From: Chiloscyllium plagiosum
Taxonomy: Eukaryota
Assembly: GCF_004010195.1 (NCBI RefSeq)
Contig: NC_057756.1
Span: forward strand, 6,550,788-6,614,787
Direction of reading: 5' to 3'
DNA length: 64,000 nucleotides
Part shown: one piece after another, positions 23,976 to 49,775 of the stretch
Layout: each line of letters begins with the position of its first letter
How positions within the stretch are numbered: position 1 is the first letter of the stretch
Notes under the pieces: generated by a model
What the model saw: the letters and a program-made list of their open reading frames with translations, nothing else
What the model was told of the DNA's origin: nothing
Databases searched by the model: none
Translations under genes and position numbers: made by a program

Positions 23976-24476
23976 TAGTGGATAGATCAATTGCTAAGCA
24001 ATGGCTGACATTTTAGGATATCCGCATATTCCTATCATAAACAAAAATTCTAAGGGTAGGACCCATTAGGAAAGCATCAAACTTAAGGAAAAAAACATAT
24101 TATTCTGCTAAGATGATCGCTAGGTCAGTTGACTGGAATATAAAGAACAACAGATAGTGACTGGAAGGTTAATCAGAGAAAGTAATTACAGAACAAGACA
24201 GAGCTAGCTACAAAGATTATTTTTTAAAAAAAGGATAGATCTTGATGTTATATGGAAGCCTGTACCTTAATTTCCATAAAGCATTTGCTAAGAAGCCACG
24301 GGAAACAAGTTATTGTGCAAAGTCAGAGTTCATTTTGAAAGAAGCAATTTATTCACATGGAGAGGGGATTGTTATGCGAGCAGAAATCAAAGTATTCTAA
24401 GTTGAAAGACATTCAATGCTTTCATTTCCTCTGTTCGCCCTCTAAGAATTCTTCAATGTGATTGGCTTTTTACTTA

Positions 24477-24650
24477 GAACACAGAACATTGAACATTACA
24501 GCGCAGTACAGGCCCTTCGGCCCTCGATGTTGCGCCGACCTGTGGAACCAATCTGAAGCCCATCTAACCTACACCATTCCATTTTCGTCCATTTGTCTAT
24601 CCAATGACCATTTAAAAGCCCTTAAAGTTGGCGAGTCTACGACTGTTGCA
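24477..24650 (-). mobile_element. CR1-family 3' end (different subfamily)
   Basis: gaacattacagcgcagtacaggcccttcggccctcgatgttgcgccgacc tail. Confidence 0.7.
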
Positions 24651-24925
24651 GATAGTAGACTACTTGTTTGATAACATCATTGATGCTCGACGCGGTAAAT
24701 GCATTTGAACTGAGAACAGCATGAAACGCACTTTGACAGTGATGAGAACAAAACTTTAGCAATTGTTAGAGATTTGTATGCAGCATTATGAACAGTGTCA
24801 TCCCTGCACCACGATACTCAAAACAGTGGCTTCTCGGAGATTTTGTAGGTATCAAGGAGGGTGCTTTAAAAATATTTAATATTAATTTGGAATATATTTG
24901 ACTGGCTTAATATTGGACGTTTCAG

Positions 24926-25033
24926 AAGGCGTGTTTGACAAAGCAAAGGAGACGCGTTGTGATGCAAAAGTGATGAAGTTGTACAGAATACAAAGCGTGC
25001 GACTGGAATCTCTGACTCTACATTACTCTCAAG
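24926..25033 (+). CDS. Weak candidate cytoplasmic exon ending LHYSQ (ITIM-like LHYSQV if spliced to 25143)
   Basis: gtttcag| 108 nt open in phase 1-1, ending caag|gtatgt. The next acceptor tttctctgaatag (25142) gives VPHQYLNSKST...MEA* followed by AATAAA at 25212. Confidence 0.25.
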
Positions 25034-25627
25034 GTATGTTCACATGATGCATTGTCAGTATAATAAGCAATTTATTGCATCTGAACATAGGTAGTCAGAG
25101 AGATAACCTGACTTCAACCATTCTCTGTATTTCTCTGAATAGTTCCTCATCAATATCTGAATTCAAAATCCACTGGGGGGGGGGGGGGACTTACCATCGA
25201 AATGGAGGCTTAATAAAGGAGAATTCCATATTTTAACTATTGTTAACAAAAACAAATCTTACTTTAACCTGTCATAACTGATCCATGGAGTCATCCAGTC
25301 GCAAAAGCTTTAGTGGAAAGACTCTTCAACTACAGTTATAAAAAATCTGAATCATGTTTTATTTCACATTGAACTGCTTGTTCGCTGAGGCATTGTTAAT
25401 TTGCACTTCTAAAAGTATGGCAATAGTTTCCATGATTTGAAGGTTTTATGTCGGTGTGTGTGTGTGTGTGTGTTACATGTGAAGAGAATGGTTATGCAAG
25501 TATATTCATACTTCTTAAATATTTGAATAATGATTCTTGCCTCTTTGCTCTTATTTAAATTTATTTGTAACCAACTCGCTCTATGTGTCTTTATTCAAGA
25601 ACCTGTCTGGTTTGCCTGATATATATG

Positions 25628-25770
25628 TAGTCATAGAGTCATAGAGATATACAGCATGGAAACAGACCCTTCAGTCCAACCCATCCATGCCGACCAGATA
25701 TTCGAACCCAATCTAGTCCCACCTGCCAGTACCCGGCCAATGTCCCTCCAAACCCTTCCTATTCATATCC
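25628..25770 (-). mobile_element. CR1/HER1 3' tail fragment
   Basis: gtcatagagtcatagagatatacagcatggaaacagacccttcagtccaac. Confidence 0.85.
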
Positions 25771-26322
25771 CCATTCCAAAGTTCTAAAGCAATGCAACAG
25801 CATATGCAACAGTAATTGCTGCTCCTGGAATTCGAGGAAATCACCTCCAACACCTCAAAAAAGAAGCAGCTGTTACAGCCAGAAATTTTTCCGTCCTCCA
25901 TCTTGGATTACCCAGAATCGAACCCCTAGATCCCTCCCTATGTATATAACTGCACCAGCCCACCTATAGATACTGTTCACACACCTACAGCCTCAATCTA
26001 CAATTCCTTATACATTTCAAGAAAGCCTCCAGACCTGCTCCAGCCTTCGGACATAGTCCAGTACCCACTGACTTCCCAATTCCTGGTAGCTGCCCAAGAA
26101 ATAACCTCCCCAATCAATCTGCTCAGCGATGTTGTAACAGGCGTCTAGAGGAGATAAGGTTTGAAACTAGGTCTCCTGGTCTGAGAGTAGCAACATTGCC
26201 ACTGAAAAGTGTACACAGGTACGTGCATGTGATTAATAGACAGAGAGAGAAAACGTTCAGAATAAAATCAAAGAAGCCTCTTTTGTATTGCAAGTTTATC
26301 AATTTAATGGCAAGAATAACTG

Positions 26323-26328
26323 TTTATT
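26323..26328 (-). terminator. Candidate polyadenylation signal of pentraxin A
   Basis: AATAAA on the minus strand, ~390 nt after the stop codon. Confidence 0.5.
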
Positions 26329-26716
26329 TTGTGTATTTGCTCAATGCTTGATTCGCACATAGTCATGAAAGCACAGAGGGATATATAGGGATTAATTATT
26401 TGCAATTACATGAAGGCACATTCATAATTCAGGATAGATTTTGACTCAGGGGGCTCTCTCAGCAGTCTAACCTCTGACACGCGTCCATGATTATTTGCAA
26501 CTGTTGCGCACATCCATAAGCTACAGATTAGTTCATGCATGTTATTGTGGTGCATTCGTTTCTGTATCTACCCATGTTTCACTGTGCTGGCGTGGGTTGT
26601 GTTAAGGAGGATGTGTTGGGGTGTATTTGTGTTTCTGCACTTGTGCCTGATTACAGGAGTGCCCGGAGGAGAGACAGCATGGTGAGTGCCTCAATCAAGT
26701 CCCAATGTGTTTTTTT

Positions 26717-27330
26717 TTAGAAGCAACAATCATGATTATCCTCCACATTCACATTCCCCCTGCTCTCGTATAGCACTGTGTCCCAGTTGATGATGTTACC
26801 CCCAGCGCTGTGACACCCTTGACTGAGCGCCTTGATGTCGTTTGCTGACAGGACATGGTCCCACAGGTGGACATCTGTCAGCTCTCCCACCAAACTCTGC
26901 TTGCTCTCAAACTTGCCCTCCACCAAGTCCTGTTCCTGACCCAGGATGAACGTACCACCGCCTCGGACTACCCCATCTTTTTTCCCGACTTTCCGAAAAC
27001 TCCGGACTCCATTGATCCAGAAAGTGATGGATCCGTTTGAGGAGTCCCAACTCACGCAGATGTGCCTCAGCAGAGCGTCGTTCACCGGGAGGGCGAAATG
27101 GAATGAGTCGCTGCCAAAGTACAGGGACAGCTTTGCGCCCTCTTGCCAGAGCAGCAACTCATTGTCCGTAGCATTTGTGGCATAGGACAACAGGCTGTAG
27201 CCTCGCTTCTCCTCTGAGGCAACCCTCAGGCAGAGGGTGAACGCCGAGAGCTGGGAGAATTCATTGGGCAGCAGCTTGACGTAAATACTGTCGGTTTGAG
27301 TCGAGAAAACTAGCGATTTGCCCAATAAAC
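26717..27330 (-). CDS. Short pentraxin A (C-reactive protein / serum amyloid P-like), pentraxin-domain exon
   Basis: Acceptor tttcctttgtttacag|GT. Motifs AFTLCLR, SYAT..DNELLLW, signature HICVSWDS, ILGQEQD, QSLVGELTDVHLWDHVLS and GNIINW. Stop TAA after DCCF. Spliced product 225 aa. Confidence 0.97.
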
Positions 27331-27568
27331 CTGTAAACAAAGGAAAATTCAGCGTTGAGCCTTTGGAAAGGAACATCTGTGAGATGCAAAGGGAAAGGGA
27401 GAGGCGGAAATGGGGAAAGGACGGATCTTCCAGCCTCCTACTCTTCACGCACTCACACACCTTCAAACAAGCACTGTCGTGCGGTCGCACACCCTCAGCT
27501 ACAAGGAGAGGCTGAATAGGCTGGGCTGTTTTCCCTGGAGCGTTGGAGGCTGAGGGACGCCCTTAAAC

Positions 27569-27893
27569 AGGCGGCACGGTGGCACAGTGGTTAGCACTGC
27601 TGACTCACAGCGCCAGACACCCGCGTTCAATTCCCGCCTCAGGCGACTCTCTGTGTGGAATTTGCACATTCTCCCCGTGTCTGCGTGGGTTTCCTCCGGG
27701 TGCTCCGGTTTCCTCCCACAGTCCAAAGATGTGCAGGTTAGGTGAATTGGCAAGGCTAAATTGCCCGTAGTGTTAGGTGAAGGGGGTAAATGTAGGGGAA
27801 TGGGTCTGGGTGGGTTGCGCTTCGGCGGGTCGGTGTGGACTTGTTGGGCCGAAGGGCCTGTTTCCACACTGTGGGGAATCTAATCTAATCTAA
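27569..27893 (+). mobile_element. HE1-type SINE, full length and young, abutting a short CR1 piece (27499-27562)
   Basis: A-box/B-box head, V-core and LINE-derived tail ending (aatct)n. Confidence 0.95.
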
Positions 27894-28185
27894 GATTGTT
27901 TTTTCTCTCTCTCTCTCGACCAAATACTCATGGTATTCTCTGTCAAACACACACACACACTTTCTCTACCTCATAGACACCGTTACGTTTATAAACAGAT
28001 TTACACACAGTCACACAAAAAACCCACTTATTAGCACAGGCTCTCCAAAGAAGCACAGTTTCTCATTCATATGCGTACACGCATGCATGTCACAGAAACG
28101 CATTGACTTCTGTACACACAAGCACGCGCAAAGAAACAGGAATTCATACACGAAAACACAGAAAAGCACCCACGCAAATGTTGTT

Positions 28186-28800
28186 GGGCAGCACGGTAGC
28201 TCAGTGGTTAGCAGCGCTCCTCACAATACCAGGGGCCCGGGTTCGATTCCAGCCTCGGGGCAACTATCTGTGTGGAGTTTGCACATTCTCCCCGTGTCTA
28301 CGTGGGTTTCCTCCGGGTGTTCCGGTTTTCTGCCACAGTCCAGATTACTTACAGCGTGGCCCAACAAGTCCACGCCGAAGCGCAACCCACCCAGACCCAT
28401 TCCCTTACATTTACCCCTTCACTTAACACTACGGGCAATTTAGCATGGCCAATTCACCTGACCTGCACATCTTTGGACTGTGGGAGGAAACCGGAGCACC
28501 CAGAGGAAACTCACACAGACACGGGGAGAATGTGCAAACCCCACACAGTCAGTCGCCTGAGGTGGGAATTGAACCCGGGTCTCTGGCGCTGTGAGGCAGC
28601 AGTGCAAACCATGCGCAGGTTAGGGTGGATTGGCCATGCTAAATTGTCCCATTGTGTTCAGGGATGTGTAGACTAAGTGCATTAGTCAGGGGTAATGTAG
28701 AGTAATAGGTTTAGGGGATGGGTCTGGGTGGGATGCTCTTTGGAGGTCGGTGTGGACATGTTGGGTCCAATGGCCTGCTTTCACACTGTAGGAATTCTAA
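28186..28800. mobile_element. Nested SINEs: older + strand copy (28186-28341 and 28606-28800) interrupted by a - strand copy (28342-28605)
   Basis: The host breaks at ccacagtcca and resumes at aaaccatgcgcaggttaggg. The insert is the reverse complement of the young consensus. Confidence 0.88.
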
Positions 28801-28959
28801 TTGAAAATATCATTTCCATAAACTGACAAAATCAGTGATACTCATTCACATGGATGAACAGAGAGACCTGCACACACATACACACAAACACGCATTAAGA
28901 CCCGTTCGCATCGGCACACAGAAAAGCATGCAGACACTGAAGACAGAACAGACATCCTA

Positions 28960-29345
28960 TGCTTGTTTGCTTTCCAGCAGAGGAGACTGAAGGCAGAACT
29001 GATTGAAGTGTACAATGATCTAAGTGATATAGTCAGTGAGAAATCTTTCACCTTAGCAGAGGGATTAGTAACCAACTGGAACAGCTTTAAGATAAAGAAC
29101 GGAAATTTCAAGGGGACATTTAAGTTAATTGCATGCAGAGGGTTGCGTGTATCTGGAACGTAAGGCCTTAAGGATTACAAAGGTTGGGACACTCAAGACA
29201 TTTGAGAAGTATTTAATAAGCACTAGAAATTCATTACCATAAAAAAGCTGTGGGTCAAGTGCTGGTAAATAGAAATAGAACAGGTAAGTGCTTGAAGACT
29301 GGCATGTGCACGATGGACTGAAAGGCCTCTGTCCCTGCTGTGAAA
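28960..29345 (+). mobile_element. Old CR1 LINE 3' fragment in the pentraxin A intron
   Basis: ORF reads RRLKAELIEVY..., with tail gatggactgaaaggcctctgtccctgctgt. Confidence 0.75.
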
Positions 29346-29544
29346 AAAAAAACTGACCGAATGTCTACGCCTCCATGGCTCTTTCATGTACAGACACACA
29401 AACACACTCTGACGTAGAGCTGGGTTTCCTTTTGCGATCTGCTACCTCCCTGCTCTGCGTGGCTGCTCATTCTCGGCATTAGAAAATACATTTTGGAATG
29501 AGGATTGCAACCCCGCAGCCTGTTTGCTATCAAAGCAAGCATAC

Positions 29545-29608
29545 CTCCATGGACCAGTCCAGGTAGAATAATGCAGCTGACAAGCCCAAGGAGAAAGAGA
29601 TTCTTCAT
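29545..29608 (-). CDS. Short pentraxin A, signal-peptide exon
   Basis: acgATG, MKNLFLLGLVSCIILPGLVHG plus G|gtatgc. Phase 1 matches the domain exon. Acceptor ccatttacag lies 12 nt upstream of the ATG. Confidence 0.93.
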
Positions 29609-29885
29609 CGTGCGAACAGTCTGTAAATGGTAATGATCAGAGAGTTACGTCCCTAGGTTTGATGCTGCTTAGTACAATCGGATCTGCGGTCCAACACTGA
29701 CATGGAAAACTCAACACCCAGGAGACAAAGTGATATCCCCAATAACTCTTTCCGAGGTTTGGCAGTGCACAGGTTTGGTCCACTGGCAAACATTCCTACA
29801 TCGGTGTAGACGGGCTATTGTTTAAAATCGCATTGAATTGGTCTTCCATGCAGACATTGAAGTTGTCTCTCCTCTGCTATATTTC

Positions 29886-30530
29886 AGCATTGCTGCACTG
29901 TCAGAGGGTCAGTGCTGAGGGAGTGCTGCACTGTCAGAGGGTCAGTGCTGAGGGAGTGCTGCACTGTCACCGAATCAGTGCTGAGGGAGTGCTGCACTGT
30001 CGGAGGGTCAGTGCTGAGGGAGTGCTGCACTGTCAGAGGGTCAGTGCTGAGGGAGTGTTGCACTGTCGGAGGGTCAGTGCTGAGGGAGTTCTGTACTACT
30101 GGAGGATCTGTACTGAGGGAGTACTGCACTATCTAAGGGTTAGTAGTGAGAGAGGTGCTGGAAAAACGCCGCAGGTCAGGCAGCATCCGAGGAGCGGGGA
30201 AATCGACGTTTCGGGCAAAAGCCCTTCATCAGGAGCAGCCCTTCCCTGCTCCTCTGATGCTGCCTGACCTGCTGCGTTTTTCCAGCACCACGTTAATCTC
30301 GACTCTGATTTCCAGCATCTGATTTACCACCGTGAGAGAGTGTGGTACTGTCGGAGAGACAACACTGAGGTACCACTGCAATCTGCTACAATCTGCACCG
30401 AGGGAGTGATGCAATGTCAGAAGGTCAGTGCTGAGGGTATGCTACACTTTCTGTCTGCGAGTTCCGAGTGTGTGCCAATCTGCTTGGCGGGTCAATGCCG
30501 AAGTTGTGCTTCACTCTCGGAAGGCCAGCA
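29886..30530. repeat. 33-bp minisatellite (gtgctgcactgtcagagggtcagtgctgaggga), decaying rightwards and interrupted at 30155-30331
   Basis: About 7 clean units plus degenerate ones. The overlapping ORF has an 11-aa period (VLHCQRVSAEG). Confidence 0.92.
30155..30331. mobile_element. Palindromic Penelope-derived insertion with a 9-bp TSD and an intact minus-strand hammerhead core (30201-30234)
   Basis: TSD gtgagagag at 30146-54 and 30332-40. Inverted arms gtgctggaaaa..gcaggtcaggcagcatc. Minus strand reads CUGAUGA-A-GGGC-UUUU-GCCC-GAAA-CGUC. Confidence 0.8.
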
Positions 30531-30644
30531 GTGAGTGAGGGCCGCATGGCCCAACAGCCAGTACTAAGGGTGCCCTGAGCTGTGTGAATGTCAGTACTCT
30601 AAGAGTTGCCCAGATGAATTGAAAGAATGCGATACATCTGTGCC

Positions 30645-30990
30645 TCTAACGCTCTCTGTCTCTTTCTCCTCACTGTCCATCATTTGCTCTCTCTCTCTCT
30701 CTGTTTCAATTTGACTCCGTGTCTCTTCCTTTAGGCATGCCTTTCTCTCTGTCTCCTTCCTTTTCTCAGTGTCTGTTTCTCCCCGTCTTTCTTCCTCCAC
30801 CTCTTGCCGTCTCTCTCAATTTCTCTCTCTCTCGCTATCTCTCCATCTCTCTCTGCTTTTACCTTCCTCTCTGTCTGTCCCTATGATGTGCACCCCTTCT
30901 GATTTTGTCCCCTCTGCCCCCACTCATTGACCATTTATTTGCATGCCTATTCCCACTGTCCTTACTCTTTCTCTCTTTGTCTCTTTCAGT
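30645..30990. repeat. CT-rich low-complexity tract
   Basis: (ct)n-like sequence. A homologous tract lies at 49449-49760. Confidence 0.8.
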
Positions 30991-30999
30991 TTCCGTACA

Positions 31000-31215
31000 T
31001 CTGTGACTGGTACTTACTGGTTTGGATTGCACTGTGGGATCGGTGTTCTCTCACCCGACATGTAGGAGTCTGTGCAGCTTTGTGCTGTACGAATGAGCAA
31101 TTTAAGGAGCTTGCACAGGAGGAAGGAGATTATTGAGCAATAGAATTACTGCCATTGAACTCCTTATTTAAACAATTCAGGAGCTGACTGAACATTAGAT
31201 GTCAATGCTCCTCAT
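31000..31215 (-). promoter_or_regulatory. Putative non-coding first exon (3' end at 31018) and proximal promoter of pentraxin A
   Basis: Donor CA|GTAAGT (31017-12). The block is colinear with 49776-49996. ATTGAGCAAT at 31132-41 and TTTAAATA at 31172-65. Confidence 0.6.
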
Positions 31216-31549
31216 AAATTTATTTTGATTTGCAAGCATTTAAGTCTTATGTGCAGCTTCAATGCACACATTCAGACGCATATATATCAACAACATGGAT
31301 GTGAAATACAGAAAATCAGAAACTCAGATTACAGACAATCATTCAGAAATGGATGGACACACGCGTGCGTGTACATACAAACACGCACACACACACAAAA
31401 CACACGATACAGACATACACACATGAATACACCCTTACACTTTCTATCTGTCTATCTTAGACTTAATACACATGGCTGCAGTGCATTCAATTTAAATTTA
31501 AGGTTCATTCCGTGCCCCATCCCCAGCCTCAGCCCAGCTTAAAGAACTA

Positions 31550-32030
31550 ATCCCCATAACCTTCCTTATCTCTATGACTTCCCCAAGCCTGACAATATTC
31601 ATTACAGCAATGAGCTCATCCCATCTTTACAACCTTCCTGAACACACACAACTTCTGCAGGTCCTGAAACCCTCTCCATTTTTGTAAGCATCTCAACTGC
31701 AGAATCAATTTGTTTTTGTTGCTTTGCAAAATAAGGCCCAACAATCTCACATATCTCTGTAACTTTCGCTTACCCCTTCAAACCTTCCTACCTCTACAAC
31801 CTTTGACAGCTCTAAACCCATCTCTATCCCTGTAACTTCCTCCAGCCCCACACCCCTCGCTAATTCTGAAAACACCGCCAGTCTCTCCATTTCTCTCTCT
31901 GTCACCTTCTCCCGTTCCTACAACCCTCCATCACTCTGCAATTTCAGCCAGCTTCTACAATCCTCGCTGACTTTCTAAAGTCCTCTAAATCCTGAAATGC
32001 AGCATATCAATGCAACCTCTTCCAGGCTCA
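31550..32030. repeat. Degenerate tandem repeat (ccctccctatctctgtaacctcctccagccctacaa-like), also at ~25930-26060 and ~36640-36830
   Basis: Recurrent ctacaaccct/atctctgtaac units. Confidence 0.55.
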
Positions 32031-32712
32031 CCCCTGACTTGATGCAGAGGGACAGTATCAAAGCTCTCTAACTGAACAATGACTATCCTGATCAGGTCTT
32101 AGTTCACTGCATATCTCACAAAAAGGTGGAATTCCATCAGTATTGGTTCAATAGTGTGTTCTGTGGTGGCTAGTTTATTGATTTCACAGTGTCTCAGTAC
32201 AAATATCGAAAGGTACATCTTCAGTCTTGGAGTCATGAGTCTCTCTCTTGTGCTGAAGATTCAATGGTGTGACCTACAGTCCCATACTGACACCTATTAT
32301 AATTAATTCACTTGGCAGTTCAGCAGAGCTGGTACATTTTCTGATCAACTTGTTGAGAGGCGTTATTAGACACCTCTGGAACAGATGGGACTTGATCCTA
32401 GGTATCTTCGCTCAGAGGTAGGGACACTACCACTGCAACAAAATAACCTTTTGTTGGAACTTAAAATGGAATGCAACTAAGAGTGCTCTAGTATAACTAG
32501 ATTTGTACTAGATCTGTTCTTGATATCGGCATTATCCATTGATTGAGGATGATTGTTATTATATTGAAGAGTCCACCGCCAATGTTTCATAAAATAGTGC
32601 CAGTACCAGGTCTTGAGTTCCAGTGGAGACCGGAAATGCCAGGCTTATTCTTCTTGCAGCATGGTGACAGCAAGAAGTTGCCGTGGGCAAATATATGATC
32701 AACCACATCATC

Positions 32713-33180
32713 GAGTCACACAGTCACAGAGTTGTACAACACGGAAACAGACTGTTCAGTCCAATTTACCCTACATCGACCGAGTTTCCCAAACTAACCA
32801 AGTCCCACTTGTCTGCATTTGGCCCATATCCCTCTAAACCTCTCCAAATGCTTTTTAAATATTGTAACTGTACGTGCATCCATAATTTCCTCTGGCAGCT
32901 CATTACAAACATGGACAACCCTCTGTGTGTAAAAGTCCCTTTTGTATCTTTTCCCCTCTCACCATAAACATATGCCCTCTGGTTTTAGACTTCCTTACCC
33001 TGTGAAAAGTCCTTTATTATTCGTCTTATCTATATCCGTTATGATTTTATATGCCTTAACCTCCTACCCTCCAGTGAAAAATGTCCTAGACTCTCCTGAT
33101 AACTCAAACTCTCCAGTCCTGATGGTATCCCGGTACAGCGTTTCTGTAGCCTCGCCAGTTTAATAATATCCTTCCTGTAG
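32713..33180 (-). mobile_element. CR1 LINE 3' fragment
   Basis: YRKDIIKLARLQKR..LSYQESL..FSLEGRRL and a tail. Confidence 0.82.
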
Positions 33181-33804
33181 CTGTCTATAAATGATGGGTG
33201 AGGATGCAGACTAATTATCAAAATAGATAGCCGCGAGTATAGATTTTCCTTTCAGGCAGTGGTCTGCCATAATCTCGAAATGACAGCCTGAATAGTTTAA
33301 ACAAATCAGTTGGGAACTTAAGTGGAAATTGAATGAAGATATTGAGGGAAATATATCCAGGGTAAGGAGAAATAGCAGGGGAATGGGATTAACTAAATAG
33401 TCTGAAGACCTGAAACAGAGATGGTGGTTGGGAAAGGGTCTTTACGTGTTGCTTCCATTGCGATTTTCCAATTCAAGGCTATACCTGACTGTAAGTTTTT
33501 CTTCAAAATGTACTTGAGCAGGTGGAAGCTAAAGTTGCAGTAGTGCCAGAGGCTGGCTCGCTCATTGCAGAGAGATCAGTGGCTGTGGTTTAACCAGAGG
33601 GTCTCAGGAAAGTGGGAGAGTTGAGCAGGATTTCAGGTTGTCCAATGAATTGAAACCAGGCTGTTAGTTCCACTCTGCATTGCAAACTGGCCATCCAACC
33701 AACGGAGCTAAATGTTGTGCAGGTGCCAAACCACTTGATGCAAGTTTCACAATCGTTTTTACATATTAAGTCGGGGTATTATTTTGTGCATTCCTTTACA
33801 TAAG

Positions 33805-34140
33805 ATCATAAATACAGGAGCAAACGGAGGCAATTCAAGCCCTCGAGCCTGCTCTGCTATTTCCTGCAATTAGGGCTAATCTCACCTCGGCCTCAGCTCC
33901 ATTTTCCTCTCTGTTCTCCATAAGTCTTCAACCCATTATTAATTATAGTTTGTCAATCTCCACATTAAAATTACTTAATGTCTCACTGCATTCTAGTTTC
34001 TAACATTTGCAGATTCACAATCAATTGAGAAAATAACTTATTTTCATCTCTCTTGAAACCACCTAGTCCTTATCCTAAAACTGTGACGTCTCACTCTAAG
34101 TTGCCCTGCTGGTTGAAACGTACGGTTTGCGTCTGCTTTC
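33805..34140 (-). mobile_element. Old CR1 3' fragment
   Basis: cataaatacaggagca..ggcaattcaagccctcgagcctgctctgc tail. Confidence 0.65.
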
Positions 34141-35939
34141 TCAATCTCTCACCTTTTTTTATACTTTAGAATGTTACGTTGCAATTTATTCTACATTTCA
34201 GTTCGCTTCTTTGTGATTACACTCTCTTTCTGTTCACTCCTGCCAAACGCATTTTATAAAATGAACTTTAAAATGGATTGCACTTCTTTAAGTTCACAAT
34301 GAACTAATGAGTAATATGGGAAGAACATTTTAAAAGCTGCATGTCTTTTTTTTAAAGAAAACATTGTTATTGTTTCTCAGGACAGTGGTATCACATGGAT
34401 GTACGTTATCTCCAGTATCCTCATTGCTTTAAATGGCAAACTTGCCACGTAGGGGTGGAACCTGTTAGACATTGCCCTTGGGAGGGTGATATACATTCTT
34501 TCTGGAAAAAAAAACCGCATTGCTCAATTAGGCCTTTGCAACATACATAATTCCATTTCGATTTTCTAGAACTGACAGAACTGCTGAGTGCAATGTCAGC
34601 AAATGAACCGGTGAGCTGTGAACTTTGCTGAAAAAGTGTCCTCTGGTGCCTTGCACCCGATAATAATTCGTGTAGTTTGAGGTTATTATTAATGTGTTGG
34701 GTATAGACCTTGTGATTATTTCTTTAATGCTGATTTTGGACTTCATCAGATATATCAAAATAAAGCAACAACAGCAAATGTTGGTTCAACAGAACGTGTT
34801 TGACATTTATGATAAATCATTTTCTCTAAATTCATAGTGTGCATACGGCCATGCACTCAGGACTTTTACCAATTATCTAGCAGGTCATTATTTTGTCCCA
34901 GTTTTACTGAAATCAAGTTGCACTATCTGCCATGGTGACATTTGAACTCAGGTACCCAGAAGATTATTACAGTCTTGTGGATTAATAATCTCTTGATAAT
35001 GCCACTAGGTTAATGATTCCCACGCAAGTGCCTATCATTTTAGCCCAGGATATTGCTGGAATATGTGCCAGCAGGACCTGATGGCTCTTGATGTTAACAC
35101 GTTTGCGTTCACTAAAGACCCTCAGAGAGAGTCATAGAGATGTACAGCATGGAAACAGACCCTTCACCCGTCCATGCCGACCAGATATCCCAACCCAATC
35201 TAGTCCCACTTGCCAGCACTCGGCCCGTATCCCTCCAAACCCTGACATCTTATCTGGTTTGGTTTACACGTGACTTGACTCATAGCAATGAGGTTTGAAT
35301 TGGAAGTGACCCAACAAGACACCTTAGCTCAAGGGAAACCAGGGATTGACGAAATGCCGTCCATGCCTGCAGCTCAGGTAAATAATAAATGAAAATAAAT
35401 AAATGGAGGAAAACCCAATGTTAAAAAAAGGCCCACCAGTCTCCCGTCCACTCATGGCCTGATGATGAGTTCAATAGATTGGGCGGCCTGACTCTAGTGT
35501 TTAGGATATTATTAGATCAGTGAGGGTTTAGAAAAGGTTGGCAGGATTGGAGAGTTAGTGTTATAAGGATGTCATGGTCGATGGTGGTCATTGCAGCCGC
35601 CATTGCTCCATTCCGAACTGAGTGAAATATTTCCTCAAGGAAACCATATTTACCGTGGGCATGCCCTCAAAACTGTCACTGTTTCCGCTGAGTCGTACGT
35701 CATTGCTAAAGAGCTAAAAACCCTAGAACATGCGGGTGTTTTTTTTAAGATAAGGATGCGTGTTTCTTTTCCCTGTCTGTTTGGCTCGGCATGCAGCCAT
35801 CTGCGCATGCGTTATCTGTGCGCACGTCTTTCTGCGCAGTTCTATCGGGGTTCCTCATTTCCTGCTTCTGCTATAGGATGGGATGCATTCATTTGTGCAG
35901 GCAATGTTTCTCTCATCAAATCACTGAATTCTGCAGGTA

Positions 35940-36330
35940 GATGGAAGACCTGGAAAACTGGAGCTGGAGTGGGCCATTCAGTCCTTCCAGCCAACTCCGG
36001 AATTCAATATGATCATGGCAGACGATCCTACTCAGTATCTCTTCCTACTTTCTCCCCATACCTTCTGATCATTTGAGCCCCAAGAACAATATATAACTTC
36101 TTATTGAAAATTTCAAAGTGTTGCCCTCAAGTGCTTTCTGTAGCAGCTAATGTCACTGCAGGGCTACCTTGTATCTTTAAACTGTGACCCCTTGTTCTGG
36201 AATCACTGACCATCGGGAGCACCCTCCCTGCTGTTACCCTGCCCAGTTTGTCAAAATGTTGTCGGCTTCTGTGTTCCTCCCCCGCTTTCATTCTTCAAAA
36301 CTCCAGTGGATGTAGTCCTAATTATCCAAT
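35940..36330 (-). mobile_element. Old CR1 3' fragment
   Basis: ggagctggagtgggccattcagtcc..aatatgatcatggc tail. Confidence 0.6.
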
Positions 36331-36999
36331 AGCATACTACGCAGTATGCCATGCCACTCCCCTTTCCTCACCTCTGTCGTTGCATTATCCTGCGTTTCAT
36401 CTCTGCCCCCATGTTACTCAAATGTGCCACTGCACTATCATTTGCACCATCTTTCCTCCTCATTCGCCCATACAGACATAAATGTTACAACGTACTGTGT
36501 CTGATATCTCACGTTATACCTTTCATAAAATTCATCATGTCTCAAGTTCTGCTGTCCCTGCCCCTCATGACTAAATTCATAGAGTTGAGCTGTCCCACGA
36601 CTCCCTGAAGCCATACTGAGTTCCCCTATTCATATAAACTCCTCCAACTATACAACGTCTCAATTCCTTCCTCATCCCTCATTCCTAGCTAGCCTGCAAA
36701 CCTCCCACGTAACAGTCCTATCTCTGTGAACCTCTCTGGCCCCTACAATCCTCCCTATCTCTGTAACCTCATTTCTCCCGTGCAACCCTCATTCTCTCTG
36801 CAACCCTCTTCAGCCAGGATCGTCTTCCTCATATCAGCTGTACTGCGTGTGTGTGTGTGAATCTGAGAGAAAGTGACAGAGAATGTGATAGGTCAGGAAG
36901 GCATTCAAACACAGGTGGATTTAGATGAAAAGGGTAGCAACATTTGACAGACATTTTTGTAATATAAACACAGAGACAATTCGAATTTCTGGATGCTAT

Positions 37000-37005
37000 T
37001 TTATT
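37000..37005 (-). terminator. Candidate polyadenylation signal of pentraxin B
   Basis: AATAAA on the minus strand, ~360 nt after the CAA codon that aligns with gene A's stop. Confidence 0.5.
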
Positions 37006-37177
37006 ATTTTGATCAGATAGCAAGCGCTACATTTTAAACTTTGTGCATTTGGGTGATATTATGCAAATCTTCCCTAATCTTATCAAATAGATTTCAAGAC
37101 CAGGTATTAAACATCCGACAAAGGATCATTCACAATCCAGTGCCCAGCCAACTTGAAAGCAGGTACTCTTTCAAGTC

Positions 37178-37983
37178 CTAATTTTGTTTGTGAAGTGCAC
37201 ATTGGTTCTCATGTGATTTGTATATGGTGTGTGTATGGGTGTGTTTGTGTGTATGCATATACGGGGGTGTGGCTGAGTCTGACATTATGTGTGCACATGA
37301 AAATGTGTGAGAGTTAGATTCTGTGTGAATGCATTTTCCTGTCATTGTCAACTCATCACAGGCAGCTTGGTGCTTGCAGTCTTTATTGCCCTGGATGTTG
37401 ATTATTCCCCTGCTCTCGTATTCCACTGTGGCCCAATTGATGATGTTACCCCCTGCGCGGTGGCATCCTCGATTTAACACCTTGATGTCTGTTGGGGACA
37501 GGACATGGTCCCACAGGTTAACATCTGTCAACTCTCCTACAAAACTCTGCTGTCTGTCAAACCCACCCCCTTCCTGGTCCTGCTCCTGCCCCAGGATAAC
37601 AATGCCCCCTCCACCCACCATGCCACCCTGATGGCCAACTTTGCGAAGGCTCCGGACTCCATTGATCCAGAAGGTGATGAGTCCAGTCAGGGAGTCCCAG
37701 GTCACGCAGATGTGTCTCAGTTGGGCGTCCAGCTCTGGGAGGTCAAAATCGAGCAAGTCAGTGTCAAGGCGGAGGGAGAGCTTTGTGTTCTCGTTGTGCC
37801 AGAGCAGTAACTCGTTGTCCTTAGTCGCTGTGGCATAGGAGAACAAGCTGTAACCTCGCTTCGCCTCTGAGGCGGCCCTCAGGCAGAGGGTGAATGCAGA
37901 GAGCTGGGGAAATTCGGCGGGAAGCAGCTTCACGTAAGAATTGTCGGTTTGAGTCTGGAAGACCAGCGACTTGCCTGAGAAAC
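37178..37983 (-). CDS. Short pentraxin B (SAP/CRP-like), pentraxin-domain exon with a 63-aa C-terminal extension
   Basis: Acceptor ttgttttattttaaag|GT. Motifs AFTLCLR, FSYAT..DNELLLW, HICVTWDS and ILGQEQD..FDRQQSFVGE. About 68% identical to gene A by hand alignment. Spliced product 287 aa. Confidence 0.96.
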
Positions 37984-38284
37984 CTTTAAAATAAAACAAT
38001 GAGTTCACATCAGTGCCATTTCGGAATGGAGTGGCAGTGTTATAGAAACAGGAGTGGAAATTTCTCACAATAGCGCAAATCATTCAAGGTGCTGTTCATA
38101 GATGACTAAGGTATACTGACTCCACTAAAATTGCCTGAGAACTACAACCCATCCATCAGGGAAATCTGACACTCAACACTCTCATAAATAGTCTCCAACT
38201 CCAAGCAGCAACCAGAGAAATCGGACAATTCGGATTTCCCTATCTGCGTCATTACCTATGGGGAACTGTTAGGCATATTATCAT

Positions 38285-41983: not shown

Positions 41984-42041
41984 CTCCACTGACAGATCCC
42001 AGCACGAAAAGGCAAGAAGCAAGGAGAATGAAGGTCTTCAT
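41984..42041 (-). CDS. Short pentraxin B, signal-peptide exon (absent from the ORF track)
   Basis: acgATG, MKTFILLASCLFVLGSVSG plus G|gtatgt. Phase 1 matches the exon at 37983. Acceptor acattcgcag lies 12 nt upstream, the same layout as gene A. Confidence 0.93.
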
Positions 42042-43851
42042 CGTGTTTCAAGTCTGCGAATGTTAATGAACAGGAAGTCGGTTACCTTGGTCTGTTGTGG
42101 AAACTCAGAATTCACACGTTAAACTGAACACACAAAAGACACAACATTGCTCTGAGAAACAACCCAAATATGTTAGCATACCAGCTCTGTCTCAGTTGCC
42201 AACTCAGAGTCCAAACATTGCGGGTTCAAGACTCACTCCGCAGCCTGAAAGCAAGCTTCAAAACAATGATTTGTGGGAATTGAGGGATATTGAGGGAAAA
42301 CTGAAATGTCAGTTGTATGTTGCAATGCCAAATGGGTTGCAATGAAGGAGTGCTGCACAGTCAGAGGCACAGTTCTACGTTAGTCGTGCAATATCAGTAC
42401 TTAAGGACATGTAGTGAAGCTGTGTCGCGCTTTTGGGAGGTCTGTAATGAGGAAGTGATGCATATTGTTGGAGAATCAATAGCGAAGAAGCACTAAACTA
42501 TCGAATGGTCAAGATGAATGGAACACTGAACCGTCAGAAGGTATATAATGAGGGAGTCTGACAATATCAGAGATAGTATTGGGTGAGGGTTTGCTGTCCA
42601 AGGGTCACTACTAGGGAGCTCCATATTGTCAGAGAAATGTACCTAGACCTGGATTTAAGTCTTGTCATTTGCTGCCTAAGAGCAATATATATCTACTTCC
42701 ACCACATCGCCTTTCGTATTTCACGACACTTTGGAAGGGGAATAAGTGGTGAGTAATATATTTGACTGACGAACGGGCACCCATATTTCATGAGTAACTT
42801 TCTTATGGAAAATAAACTGCAGCCGTGCACTGAAGCAGGGATTTGCAATTGGTAGTGAACTCTGTGCTACCTACATTTGGCTACTCTGACGAATGCTTAT
42901 TGACTTTCACCTTGAAATTTGATCTCAGCTTGTCTTTCTCTCTTTACTCTCCATGTTAGCTTTTATCTCTGATTTTCTCTTTTTGTCACTTAATCTTTTT
43001 CGTTGTCAATCTGCAGATCTCAGTCAATTCCTCGTTCTGTCCATCTCCCCCTATCGTTCCCACTTTGGGATTCCTCTTTCTCAAGGCTATGTACGACAGA
43101 TCAAAACAGAAGCACAAGGGGCAACAAATTCTTCGATTTTTAAATACAAACAGTAAAAGAAGCCAGACTCCATTACAGAGCTGAAATGCCATGCGAATTT
43201 TGCAATTTGGACATATCGATTGCTACAAGTCCTGTAGGAAATGTGTTGTTCTTGTCACTGCTAAATTAGAGTTTCAGAGAGTCATCAGGAGCCTTTAGGG
43301 TAAAGACTAAATTCTTTGGACGAATCAATTTGCTGCAGTCAGGTGGGAGCAGGTTAACCAGAAGTATCCACAGATGTAATATACAAAACATCTATTACTT
43401 TTTTTGGGAGTGAAACAATGAATAAAACACCCAGAAAATTTAAATAAAAAATCTTTGTGCAACTATGTTCAAGTATTAAATTGAAAATGACCATCACTCT
43501 ACAGACTATATCCTGTCATCAATTGTTAAAATGAACAAAACTGTGAAAGGCAATCAGTCCCATCAGTGAGGCCTAGGCTATTGTTTTCAGTATTTGTCTT
43601 TTCCCTATCGTAATGTTTTCTCCATCATTTCCTGTCAAACCATCTGTCTTATTCTTAAGTGAGTCTGTCTGTATTTGGGATTGAAGTTTACCATTGAGGG
43701 TAGACAACAGTTCTTTATTCTTCATTACAGTTTGCAAATTAAGAAATGCGTTTGCAATAAATAGATACTGTGTCCTGTTAATAACAAAATCTGGTGCAAA
43801 TTTGAGTAATCCTGAGCCACAGTCATTTCGGAAAGCTGATGGTTTAATTGA

Positions 43852-44480: not shown

Positions 44481-45039
44481 ATAATTCTCAACATTTGTCA
44501 TGAACTGTGGAAACTTTTGAGTTTCAGTATTGGTTTACTCTTCCCCATTACATAAGAATGGAAGGTGGTCGTGGTTGTTGGCAATCAGCCGTCTTAAGTT
44601 CAGGTCTTATCCATAGGGACTCCTCTGGCCCATCATCCTCAGCTGCTTCATCAGCTCCTTTGCTTCCATCACAATGTCAGAATGGGTCAAGAGTATAAGA
44701 GTCTATGGGATCGAAAGCAAGGGGCACAGTTGGACATAAAGTTGGCTGTAGCAAAGACGACGATGATGGAAGAATTGTTTTATTGAGGGTCTTATAATGT
44801 AATCATTCTTGTTTGGCAAAATGATGGAAGCAGATTGACAGCACAGTGCATAAGGCTCCTGCATGCACAAGGGTCATCTGCTCAGTCCGCTGTCACTTTT
44901 GCTTTTTCCAATCTTTTCTCCCCAGTCTTTTTACCCAAGTCATACCTACTTACCTGATGTGAGATGTGGGTCAGTGGCAACAGAGGCCTCCGACGTCAAT
45001 ACCAGTCTTTCCAAAAAGCGGCCAGAGAGTAGTCAACAT

Positions 45040-48000
45040 GAGGCATCGAGACAGAGAGCAGGCAGACTGAGACAGTGAGACAGGGAGCAGGCAGACTGAG
45101 GCAGGCAGAGAGAGAGAGGACAGGCCGACTGAGGCAGGGAGAGAGGGAACAGGCAGACTGGGGCAGTGAGAGAGGAAACAGGCAGACTGAGGCAGTGAGA
45201 CAGAGATCAGGCAGACTGAGGCAGGGAGAGAGGGAGCAGGCAGACAGAGGCAGTGAGAGAGGGAGCAGGCAGACTGAGGCAGTGAGAGAGAGAACAGGCA
45301 GACGGAGACAGAGAGGGAGCAGGCAAAGTGAGACAGTGAGAGAAGGAGCAGGCAGACTGAGGCAGGCAGAGAGAGAGGACAGGCCGACTGAGGAAATGAG
45401 AGAGGGAGCAGGCCGAATGAGGCAGTGAGTGAGTGAACAGGCAGACTGGGACAGTGAGAGAGAAAACAGGCAGACGGAGGCAGGGAGACAGAGAACACAC
45501 AGACTGAGGCAGTGAGACAGAGAACAGGCAGACTGAGACAGTGAAAGAGAGAACAGGCAGACTGAGGCATAGAACATAGAAACAGGCAGACTGAGGCAAG
45601 AGAGAAAACAAAACACCGATGCCCGCTACAGGTAAGTAATTTTGAAAAAAACTCTTACCTTAGCTGTAGTCTCCCGGGTTCAACTCAACTCGTCCGCTGC
45701 TCCCACTCAAAAGGCAGGGAGAGAGGGACCAGGCAGACTGAGGCATTGATAGAGGGAACAGGCAGACTGAGGCAATAAGGGAGAGAACAGGTGGACTGAG
45801 GCAGTGAGAGAGGGAACAGGCAGACTGAGGCAGTGAGAAAGGGAACAGGCAGACTGAGGCAGTGAGAGAGGGAACAGGCAGACTGAGGCAGAAAGGGAGA
45901 GAACCAGCAGACTGAGGCAGTGAGAGAGAGAACAGGCAGACTAAGGCAAGGATAGAGGAAGCCGGCAGACTGAGGCAGTGAGAGAGGGAGCAGACAGACT
46001 GAGGCAGTGAGAGAGAGAACAGGCAGACTGAGGCAGGGAGAGAGGGAGCAGCCAGACTGAGGCAGTGAGAGAGGGAGAGGCAGACTGACGCAGTGAGACA
46101 GAGAACATGCAGACTGAGACAATGAGAGAGGGAGCAGGCAGACTGAGGCAGTGAGAGAGGAAACAGGCAGACTGAGGCAGTGAGAGAGAGAACAGGCAGA
46201 CTGAGGTAGGGAGAGAGGGAGCAGGCAGACTGAGGCAGTGAGAGAGGGACCAGGCAGACTGGGCCAGTGAGAGAGGAAACAGGCAGACTGAGGCAGTGAG
46301 AGAAAGAACAGGCAGACTGAGATAGAGAGGGAACATGCAGACTGAGACAGTGAGAGAGGGAGCAGGCAGACGGAGGCAGGCAGAGAGAGAGGACAGGTCG
46401 ACAGAGGAAATGAGAGAGGGAGCAGGCCGACTGAGGCAGTGAGAGAGAAAACAGGCAGACTGAGGCTGTGAGAGAGGAAACAGGCAGACTGAGGCAGTGA
46501 GGGAGAGAACCGGCAGACTGAGGCAGGGAGAGAGGGAGCAGGCAGACTGGGGCAGGCAGAGAGAGGAAACAGGCAGACTGAGGCAGTGAGAGAAAGAAAA
46601 GGCAGACTGAGACAGTGAGAGAGGGATCAGGCAGACTGGGGCAGTGAGAGAGGAAACAAGCAGACTGAGGCAGTGAGAGAGGGAGCAGGCGAACTGAGGC
46701 AGTCAGGGAGTGAACAGGCAGACTGAGGCAGGGAGAGAGGGAACAGGCAGACTGAGGCAGTGAGAGAGGGAACAGGCAGACTGAGGCTATAAGGGAGAGA
46801 ACAGGTGGATTGAGGCAGTGAGAGAGGGAACAGGCAGACTGGGACAGTGAGAGAGGTAGCAGGCAGACTGAAGCAGCGAAAGAGGGAACAGGCTGACTGA
46901 GGCAGTGAGAGAGGGAGCGGACAGACTGAGGCAGTGAGAGAGGGAACAGGCAGACTGAGGCAGTGAGAGAGGAAACAGGCAGACTGAGGCAGAAAGGGAG
47001 AGAACCGGCAGACTGAGGCAGAGAGAGAGCGAACAGGCAGACTGAGGCAAGGATAGAGGGAGCAGGCAGACTGAGGCAGTGAGAGAGGAAACAGGCAGAC
47101 TGAGGCAGTAAGACAGAGAACATGTAGACTGAGACAATGAGAGAGGGAACAGGCAGACTGAGGCACGGAGACAGGAAACAGGCAGACTGAGGCAGAAAGG
47201 GAGAGAACCGGCAGACTGAGGCAGAGAGAGAGCGAACAGGCAGACTGAGGCAAGGATAGAGGGAGCAGGCAGACTGAGGCAGTGAGAGAGGAAACAGGCA
47301 GACTGAGGCAGTAAGACAGAGAACATGCAGACTGAGACAATGAGAGAGGGAGCAGGCAGACTGAGGCAGTGAGAGAGGGAGCGGACAGACTGAGGCAGTG
47401 AGAGAGAGAACAGGCAGACAGAGGCTGGGAGAGAGGGAAAAGGCAGACTGAGGCAGTGAGAGAGGGAACAGGCAGACTGAGGCACGGAGAGAGGAAACAA
47501 GCAGACTGAGGCAGTGAGAGAAAGAACAGGCAGACTGAGACAGAGAGGGAACATGCAGAGTGAGACAGTGAGATAGGGAGCAGGCAGACTGAGGCAGGCA
47601 CTGAGAGAGGACAGGCAGACTGAGGAAATGAGAGAGGGAGCAGGCCGACTGAGGCAGTGAGGGAGTGAACAGGCAGACTGGGGCAGTGAGAGAGGAAACA
47701 GGCAGACGGAGGAATGGAGACAGAGAACAGGCAGACTGGGGCAGTGAGAGAGGAAACAGGCAGACTGAGGCAGGAAGACAGAGAACAGGCAGACTGATGC
47801 AGTAAGGGTGGGAACAGGCAGACTGAGGCAGTGAGAGAGAGAATAGGCAGACTGAGGCAGGGAGAGAGGGAACAGGCAGACTGCGGCAGTGAGGGAGGGA
47901 ACATGCAGACTGAGACAGTGAGAGAGGGAGTTGGCAGACTGAGGAAGTAAAAGAGGGAGCAGGCAGAATAAGGCAGTAAGAGAGAGAACAGGCATACTGA

Positions 48001-48884
48001 GGCAGTGAGAGAGAGAAGAGGCAGACTGAGGCAGTGAGATAGGGAGCAGGCAGACTGAGGCAGTGAGAGAGAGAACAGGTAGTCTGAGGCAGGGAGAGAG
48101 GGAGCAGGCAGACGGAGGCAGTGAGAGAGGGAACAGGCAGACTGAGGCAGTGAGAGAGGAAACAGGCAGACTGAGGCAGAAAGGGAGAGAACCGGCAGAC
48201 TGAGGCAGTGAGAGAGAGAACAGGTAGTCTGAGGCAGGGAGAGAGGGAGCAGGCTGACGGAGGCAGTGAGAGAGGGAAGAGGCAGAGAGGGAGCAGGCAG
48301 ACTGAGGCAGTGAGAGAGGGACCAGGCAGACTGGGGCAGTGAGAGAGGAAACAGGCAGACTGAGGCAGTGAGAGAAAGAACAAGCAGACTGAGACAGAGA
48401 GGAAACATGCAGACTGAGACAGTGAGAGAGGGAGCAGGCAGACTGAGGCAGGCAGAGAGAGAGAGTACAGGCCGACTGAGGAAATGAGAGAGGGAGCAGG
48501 CCGACTGAGGCAGTGAGAGAGGAAACAGGCAGACTGAGGCTGTGAGAGAGGAAACAGGCAGACTGAGGCAGTGAGAGAGAGAACCGGCAGACTGAGGCAG
48601 GGAGAGAGGGAGCAGGCAGACTGGGGCAGGCAGAGAGAGGAAACAGGCAGACTGAGGCAGTGAGAGAAAGAAAAGGCAGACTGAGACAGTGAGAGAGGGA
48701 TCAGGCAGACTGGGGCAGTGAGAGAGGAAACAGGCACACTGAGGCAGTCAGGGAGTGAACAGGCAGACTGAGGCAGGGAGAGAGGGAACAGGCAGACTGA
48801 GGCAGTGAGAGAGGGAACAGGTAGACTGAGGCACGGAGAGAGGAAACTGGCAGACTGAGGCAGTGAGAGAGAGAACAGGCAGAC
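45040..48884. repeat. 29-bp GA-rich satellite (aggcagactgaggcagtgagagagggaac)n, ~130 units, running into an assembly gap
   Basis: Direct inspection. A 7-unit (203-bp) higher-order duplication at 46981 and 47184. A unique island at 45611-45711. Confidence 0.97.
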
Positions 48885-49775
48885 NNNNNNNNNNNNNNNN
48901 NNNNNNNNNNNNNNNNNNNNNNNNNNNNNNNNNNNNNNNNNNNNNNNNNNNNNNNNNNNNNNNNNNNNNNNNNNNNNNNNNNNNNNNNNNNNNNNNNNNN
49001 NNNNNNNNNNNNNNNNNNNNNNNNNNNNNNNNNNNNNNNNNNNNNNNNNNNNNNNNNNNNNNNNNNNNNNNNNNNNNNNNNNNNNNNNNNNNNNNNNNNN
49101 NNNNNNNNNNNNNNNNNNNNNNNNNNNNNNNNNNNNNNNNNNNNNNNNNNNNNNNNNNNNNNNNNNNNNNNNNNNNNNNNNNNNNNNNNNNNNNNNNNNN
49201 NNNNNNNNNNNNNNNNNNNNNNNNNNNNNNNNNNNNNNNNNNNNNNNNNNNNNNNNNNNNNNNNNNNNNNNNNNNNNNNNNNNNNNNNNNNNNNNNNNNN
49301 NNNNNNNNNNNNNNNNNNNNNNNNNNNNNNNNNNNNNNNNNNNNNNNNNNNNNNNNNNNNNNNNNNNNNNNNNNNNNNNNNNNNNNNNNNNNNNNNNNNN
49401 NNNNNNNNNNNNNNNNNNNNNNNNNNNNNNNNNNNNNNNNNNNNNNNNTCTCTTTGTTTCTCTCTGTCTCCTTCAATCTGTCTGCCTCTTTCTGCCTCTC
49501 TCTCTTTCTTTCTGTCTCTGTTTCTCTCTGCCAATCTCACATTCTCTCTCTGTCTGTCTTTCTTTGCATCCGTCTCTCTGTCTCTCTGTTTGTTTTGCTT
49601 TTCACTACTCTGTTCTTTGTTTCCCTGTTTCTCACTGTCTCTCTGTTTCTATCTCACACTCTCTGTCTCTGTTTCTCTTTCACTGTCTGTACTGCTTCAT
49701 CTCTCTCTTTCTCTTTTTATCCCTATCCTTGTCCTTCTCTTTCTCTTTCTTACTTTAATTTCAATCTCAATGAAC

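Follow-up and report, generated by a model that had tools for sequence, protein, structure and literature searches.

In the window, by which we mean the whole stretch of 64,000 nucleotides that was analysed, two pentraxin genes (genes A and B) lie in tandem on the minus strand. The features of the two genes are as follows, with positions given in window coordinates:

41984..42041, minus strand: coding exon 1 of gene B, with the ATG and a predicted signal peptide of ~19 aa (tblastn with the gene B N-terminus; GT donor)
37370..37983, minus strand: exon 2 of gene B, short-pentraxin domain, residues 20-224 (Pfam PF00354, Foldseek)
37367..37369, minus strand: CAA (Gln225) of gene B at the putative ancestral TAA position (comparison with paralogues and relatives; transcript contigs)
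37181..37366, minus strand: gene B tail after Gln225, residues 226-287, His/Cys-rich, in CA-rich DNA
37178..37180, minus strand: new stop codon TAG of gene B
36980..37177, minus strand: remaining 3'UTR of gene B (T-runs in run X7; nhmmer)
37005-37000, minus strand: AATAAA of gene B
about 36986-36980, minus strand: poly(A) addition of gene B (non-templated T-runs in run X7)
29545..29608, minus strand: coding exon 1 of gene A, the tandem paralogue
26717..27330, minus strand: exon 2 of gene A, pentraxin, ending in DCCF-stop, 225 aa (P0081)

The coding span of gene B on exon 2, tail and stop included, is 37983-37178 (-), and the TAA of gene A is at 26719-26717 (-). The two coding exons of gene B encode a product of 287 aa that is letter-for-letter identical to RefSeq XP_043539147.1, a 287-aa 'C-reactive protein-like' protein of Chiloscyllium plagiosum; the tail is thus already present in automated annotation. 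An acceptor-like site 12 nt upstream of the gene B ATG (42053-42041, -), together with loose contig ends of 116-193 nt, suggests an extra non-coding first exon. We also noted that gene A exon 1 is closely preceded by a 33-nt tandem repeat (29825-30550), which is longer at the duplicate locus described below, and that degenerate copies of it lie upstream of gene B exon 1 (42310-42570). Elsewhere in the window, more than 100 copies of a 29-nt unit form an array with a 564-nt N gap inside it (44950-49450), and this array yields long spurious Leu/Ser/Cys-rich ORFs.

The initial annotation had considered that the CAA might be an assembly error, with reads showing TAA instead. The transcript data contradict this, as all seven contig runs examined over the gene B tail, out of 24 runs listed, cover the CAA without any listed difference, and in six of the seven a single contig bridges it; the exception is run X16, where the CAA is covered without a bridging contig under a 31-letter rule. 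We gave no weight to run X18 (depth 5.85, 0 differences), which may reflect carry-over. In three independent samples from three studies, none of them flagged as the possible source of the assembled DNA, contigs show neither a difference nor a gap across both tail and core (X9, 36996-37985; X8, 36995-37985; X7, 37053-37985). Exon-1 sequence is found in loose contig ends at 37985 in five of the seven runs, including these three, and run X7 contains T-runs at 36980-36986, 14-20 nt past the AATAAA, where the genome has no A-run, which identifies them as poly(A); none of the listed runs is on record as RNA, and it is on this exon junction and poly(A) that the RNA status of the contig runs rests. 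No contig junction skipping the tail was seen in the contig runs examined. Since contigs span the tail, the core and exon 1, the mature mRNA contains the tail, which is in frame with the pentraxin domain, and gene B is a spliced, polyadenylated short-pentraxin gene. We therefore give practically no weight to an assembly error or a recent private allele, since the CAA is carried by independent transcript contigs and by the duplicate (pseudogene) copy, and since tailed orthologues exist in three other named species.

The core of gene B is a single pentraxin domain (PF00354, 195.5 bits against a cut-off of 25, E 9.9e-58). Its AlphaFold2 model has pLDDT >70 for 202 residues, and Foldseek aligned it to zebrafish CRP (E 1e-22), human SAP and human CRP with TM scores (by target) of 0.92-0.93. 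No long N-terminal domain is present, as the protein starts with 19 hydrophobic-rich residues, taken for a signal peptide on visual inspection and from an alignment with the human CRP precursor, and continues directly with the pentraxin domain. Matches of the core to CRP/SAP (E 1e-40 to 1e-47) are also stronger than those to PTX3/NPTX (E 1e-19 to 1e-25). The two-calcium site of human CRP is formed by D60, N61, E138, Q139, D140, E147 and Q150, according to the available text of PMC6503050, and the putative calcium ligands of gene B, assigned by sequence alignment, are D75, N76, E153, Q154, D155, D162 and Q165. The Cys53-Cys112 pair is present, and a second pair (193, 222) occurs widely among shark pentraxins. 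The mature mass computed for gene B is 29.9 kDa, the family criterion being a cyclic oligomer of 20-30 kDa subunits. All three phosphocholine-pocket positions differ from those of human CRP (Phe66 is Trp81, Thr76 is Arg91 and Glu81 is Leu96). A CRP in the strict sense is defined by Ca-dependent phosphocholine binding, and we do not file gene B as one despite its RefSeq name. The B clade further carries an acidic segment, RLDTDLLDFD (residues 89-99; 37775-37745, -), where A-type proteins have YFGSD-like residues; these positions line the ligand pocket in human CRP/SAP, so ligand specificity may have diverged as well.

Where the two genes part company is the C-terminus. Gene A ends with GAT TGT TGC TTC TAA, whereas gene B reads GAC TGC AAG CAC CAA, and its frame stays open for 63 sense codons from the CAA to the TAG, including 10 His and 4 Cys, just as the initial annotation had reported; its statement that the AATAAA lies at a similar distance from the old stop position in both genes also holds, with 391 nt in gene A and 364 nt in gene B, counted to the first base of that position. 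The tail cysteines are residues 228, 237, 249 and 281, the alternating histidines fall at 263-271, and the tryptic peptides expected from the C. plagiosum tail include HQAACDELTMTGK, HTHTHTIYK and SHENQCALHK. All four paralogues in the same genome (A, A2, A3 and one on contig C27) have TAA at the old stop position, from which CAA is one step away. We examined 67 matches and dropped four from tetrapods, leaving 63 relatives that are, or group with, cartilaginous-fish pentraxins (sharks, rays, chimaeras). In 49 of these 63 the chain ends exactly two residues past the last core Cys, while gene B continues for 65 residues, and we thus regard it as a variant of the short-pentraxin family. Short C-terminal extensions of 7-11 residues past the last Cys, several of them ending in VG, occur independently in some Mustelus and Scyliorhinus pentraxins (P0010, P0011, P0028, P0056, P0065).

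Annotated proteins with the same tail exist in C. punctatum (GCC20420.1, P0082; 63 aa), in the whale shark (XP_020369716.1, P0084; 63 aa) and, with a 2-aa truncation, in the zebra shark (XP_048379946.1, P0002; 61 aa). The initial annotation had also allowed for a recent neutral allele and had asked whether orthologues in related sharks stop at this codon; none does, as all five named B orthologues have Gln there, and the occurrence of the tail in four named species disposes of 'recent'. Tail identity among the orthologues is 77-92%, against 80-95% for the core, the 61 tail columns are free of indels, and in six Fisher tests the tail was not significantly less conserved than the core (P 0.17-0.86). 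A further organism (organism D) has the tail with five substitutions and no gap; two of these changes are synonymous, one in a His codon, and no His or Cys is altered. The epaulette-shark model (P0003) diverges after AHIM to a different end, with a 9-residue deletion in the tail and one of the four Cys at the aligned position; however, its N-terminus matches translated intron, as judged by eye, and thus this model may be unreliable. A phylogeny of 43 core domains places the five B proteins in a single clade (support 100/99) adjoining the A-type clade of the same sharks (100/97), with a joint support of 92/94. According to the accessible part of PMC8529718, the carpet-shark families, the whale/zebra pair excepted, had separated before the K-Pg boundary, and from this split and the shared tail the stop-loss is likely more than 66 My old. 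These comparisons point to a change of an ancestral TAA to CAA in the common ancestor of bamboo, whale and zebra sharks, likely before 66 My, and we hold this reconstructed history of an old stop-loss to be highly probable. We also observed that one C. punctatum RefSeq model (P0083, 527 aa) fuses B with its tail to A, and that RefSeq labels the zebra-shark B-type and A-type proteins as isoforms X1-X3 (P0002/P0085/P0005), which reflects either read-through transcription or annotation merging.

The origin of the tail sequence can be addressed through the duplicates of the locus. An inverted duplicate of the B-A pair lies on the same contig at a distance of ~1.5 Mb (G000:C47:8118544-8133600, L020-L022, versus 24400-37670 in the window). 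The A copy there (L002) is intact, and the B copy is a 5'-truncated, frameshifted pseudogene that retains the CAA and the tail DNA, in which it has a frameshift, a TAA and three lost His. Another A-type copy, this one also broken, was located at G000:C47:7378964 (L005), and C27 carries a short pentraxin of more distant relationship (L004). A distal-3'UTR profile built from three A-type copies matched gene B at 37174-37017, directly after the new TAG (nhmmer, E 0.001-0.006), and also the pseudogene copy (E 1e-7 to 8e-9), so the remaining UTR of gene B corresponds to the distal half of the ancestral UTR, with the tail falling on the proximal half. Proximal- and mid-UTR profiles of the paralogues had no match in the gene B tail DNA, and the tail DNA aligned only weakly, though collinearly, to the gene A UTR (P 0.03); the UTR origin of the tail thus rests on position. 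The tail also seemed to match the A3 UTR well, but we put this down to CA richness without specificity and discounted it. The proximal UTR of A-type paralogues is likewise CA-rich. A genome search with the tail and UTR DNA returned only the pseudogene copy and two short CA-rich matches on C27. We therefore uphold the earlier proposal that former 3'UTR was recruited as coding sequence, given the conserved stop position and the homology of the remaining UTR of gene B to the distal UTR of its paralogues, with the origin being inferred from position. An insertion of the tail before the old stop, instead of read-through of the UTR, would account for the weak match of the first 40 nt after the last Cys of gene A to the end of the B tail (P 0.015) but leaves the other observations unaccounted for, namely, the lack of a match of the paralogues' proximal-UTR profile in B, the distal-UTR match directly after the TAG, the preserved distance from the old stop to the AATAAA, and a CAA one step from TAA at a conserved position; we consider it very improbable. 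In the remaining UTR, a short motif (CTGGATTGTGAATG-like, 37139-37125, -) is kept in all five shark short-pentraxin UTRs, that of the distant C27 paralogue (L004:2800-2840) among them, and might be a regulatory element.

When the downstream sequence was dinucleotide-shuffled, 2.6% of the shuffles had an open frame of at least 62 codons, the median being 12 codons. The composition of the tail, however, is that of its DNA: shuffled tail DNA encoded on average 8.0 His (P = 0.24 for at least 10) and 2.7 Cys (P = 0.26 for at least 4), and the other two frames of the tail DNA encode 8 His each. The His and Cys counts are thus not above chance for CA-rich DNA, which is expected because CA repeats give His-Thr in any frame. 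The tail is hydrophilic (GRAVY -0.87), with a computed charge of -1 at pH 7.4 and +7 at pH 5.5, and contains neither an N-glycan sequon nor a Pfam domain. AlphaFold2 gave pLDDT <50 for residues 224-287 and no confident tail fold; a hairpin in the model was disregarded (pLDDT <40). A representative library of 1.84 billion sequences returned, for the tail, only the gene B protein itself and three repeat-rich unrelated proteins, which we rejected as summed low-complexity matches. In a search with the tail region, only two carpet-shark clusters were genuine among four candidates, and a search of Atlas gave no usable match. By sequence search, the tail is therefore without a detectable homologue outside these sharks.

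Does selection maintain the tail? In the four-species comparison, with branch lengths calibrated on protein, 13 of 14 His/Cys columns are invariant, compared with 31 of 47 others (Fisher one-sided P 0.044), the His/Cys class having been named by the initial annotation before the orthologues were seen. Neutral simulation gave P about 0.03, with P 0.015-0.038 under five mutation models, while the conservation of Cys columns alone was not significant (P about 0.25). An intact frame had P 0.02-0.04 under neutrality, based on 0.092 frameshifting gaps per substitution, a rate taken from the duplicated flanks, and on the first 61 codons only, which excludes the 2-aa truncation of the zebra shark; P becomes 0.04-0.18 if the epaulette-shark P0003 counts as a true loss. 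The crude dN between whale and zebra sharks is about 0.064 in the tail and 0.047 in the core, and the chromosome-median dS of this pair is 0.061-0.111 in the available part of PMC13100897. As the tail dN is at the level of the published dS, sites other than His/Cys appear to drift nearly freely, and because sharks evolve slowly, a tail identity of 77-85% alone is not evidence of selection. Taken together, these tests lend modest support to selection on the reading frame and the His/Cys of the tail, with probably little on other sites.

Two other accounts of the same data have to be set against this. The tail may be the product of an old, translated stop-loss that does nothing, a hydrophilic, disordered appendage persisting through low shark substitution rates. 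The near-neutral dN, the His/Cys content predicted by DNA composition, the negative GRAVY and low pLDDT, the apparent erosion in the epaulette-shark model and the zebra-shark truncation all agree with this account, as does the B side of the comparison between B and the pseudogene, where ~7-8 changes are replacements and 0-1 are silent (polarity assigned by eye from P0002, P0082 and P0084). What it does not predict is the invariance of His/Cys or the intact frame in four species (P about 0.02-0.04 each), or that the pseudogene copy lost frame and His alike; we see in it a substantial possibility, although not the leading one. Alternatively, the CA-rich stretch might be kept as an mRNA element, with His/Thr conservation as a by-product. 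At most one of the 19 tail differences between B and the pseudogene is synonymous, where 4.5 are expected (P 0.04), the two copies diverge by 10-12% in the tail and remaining UTR against 14-17% in the flanks, and the CA richness of proximal UTRs extends to the A-type paralogues. However, an RNA element would not need a reading frame, the two synonymous changes in organism D run against it, and stretches that are similarly tail-like and CA-rich occur at unrelated places (scores 73-78 versus 80), making this account improbable.

The explanation we consider best, with even chances of being right, is that the tail is a flexible, weakly selected Zn/Cu-binding appendage of a calcium-dependent short pentraxin. 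The stop-loss would have added 63 residues from the CA-rich former 3'UTR to the gene B protein, and as CA repeats encode His-Thr in every frame, metal ligands would have come along with it. The tail is predicted to be flexible and might be tied by disulfides. The protein is presumably secreted, and would oligomerise like CRP/SAP and bind ligands through the conserved calcium site; such an oligomer would display several tails per ring, giving ~50 His on a pentamer. With their His cluster the tails may bind Zn/Cu, and they might form disulfides within or between chains, or cross-link rings; interchain disulfides have been reported for dogfish CRP, according to the available text of PMC6503050. 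A bolder version, by which a single stop-loss turned a CA-microsatellite-like 3'UTR into a multivalent metal-binding module, Zn/Cu-chelating or ring-cross-linking, on a secreted pattern-recognition pentraxin of carpet sharks, is possible but in our judgement somewhat unlikely.

A literature search, made by protein accession as well, found no description of the gene B tail, and neither peptides nor binding data for it, within its coverage, outside which most subscription papers fall, and the available portions of PMC7677710, PMC10707392 and PMC13701976 hold nothing on gene B. The plasma spectra of the nurse shark in PMC9207270 were also matched to whale-shark proteins, among which XP_020369716.1 is the tailed entry. 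While the mutational route is known and the gene B sequence is already in databases, a pentraxin tail with conserved His/Cys appears to be undescribed. The stop-loss extensions on record are for the most part short, polymorphic or pathogenic, whereas that of gene B is long, old and expressed; as its genome also holds sister paralogues lacking the tail and a pseudogene that serves as control, it offers a clean test of a one-step selected function from non-coding DNA. As CA repeats encode His in every frame, gene B also shows how metal-binding tails could arise in a simple way. In the context of shark immunology, it points to a pentraxin subtype that diverged after duplication in both its ligand pocket and its C-terminus. 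If the metal-module reading is true, metal could be withheld or delivered at the recognised surface, and gene B would represent a class of C-terminally extended pentraxins and a dated vertebrate case of non-coding DNA giving rise to a functional domain; a neutral tail would be only a minor curiosity, present but so far unremarked in automated annotation.

Among known systems, the short pentraxins CRP and SAP (PDB 4PBP, 1SAC, 1GNH) share with gene B the two coding exons, the signal-peptide-like N-terminus, the single domain, the Cys pair, the calcium ligands and the fold, and differ from it in the 63 extra C-terminal residues and the altered phosphocholine pocket of gene B. The long pentraxins (PTX3, PTX4 and the neuronal pentraxins) likewise combine a pentraxin domain with an unrelated extra region; however, their extra domain is N-terminal, as described in the accessible text of PMC3791837, while that of gene B is C-terminal, short and probably UTR-derived. 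The mutational route is the same as in the stop-codon-loss extensions of yeast (54 cases) and fly (28 cases), where non-coding sequence was co-opted into the C-terminus; in the part of PMC4494051 available, these are still polymorphic, whereas the 63 aa of gene B are common to three shark families. For the putative metal binding, the closest parallel is the tail of human FGFRL1, in which His alternates with Thr/Ser/Gln and which was retained on Ni and Zn columns and took up 2.6 Zn per molecule, according to the available text of PMC2806250; that text does not state a UTR derivation. Like the gene B tail, the FGFRL1 motif is C-terminal and has 10 His alternating with Thr-type residues; Zn binding was measured for the FGFRL1 motif. 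However, it belongs to the intracellular tail of a membrane receptor and packs 10 His into 26 residues, against 10 in 46 in gene B; the parallel is one of analogy only, with no sequence homology detected, and draws on the composition and conservation of the gene B tail.
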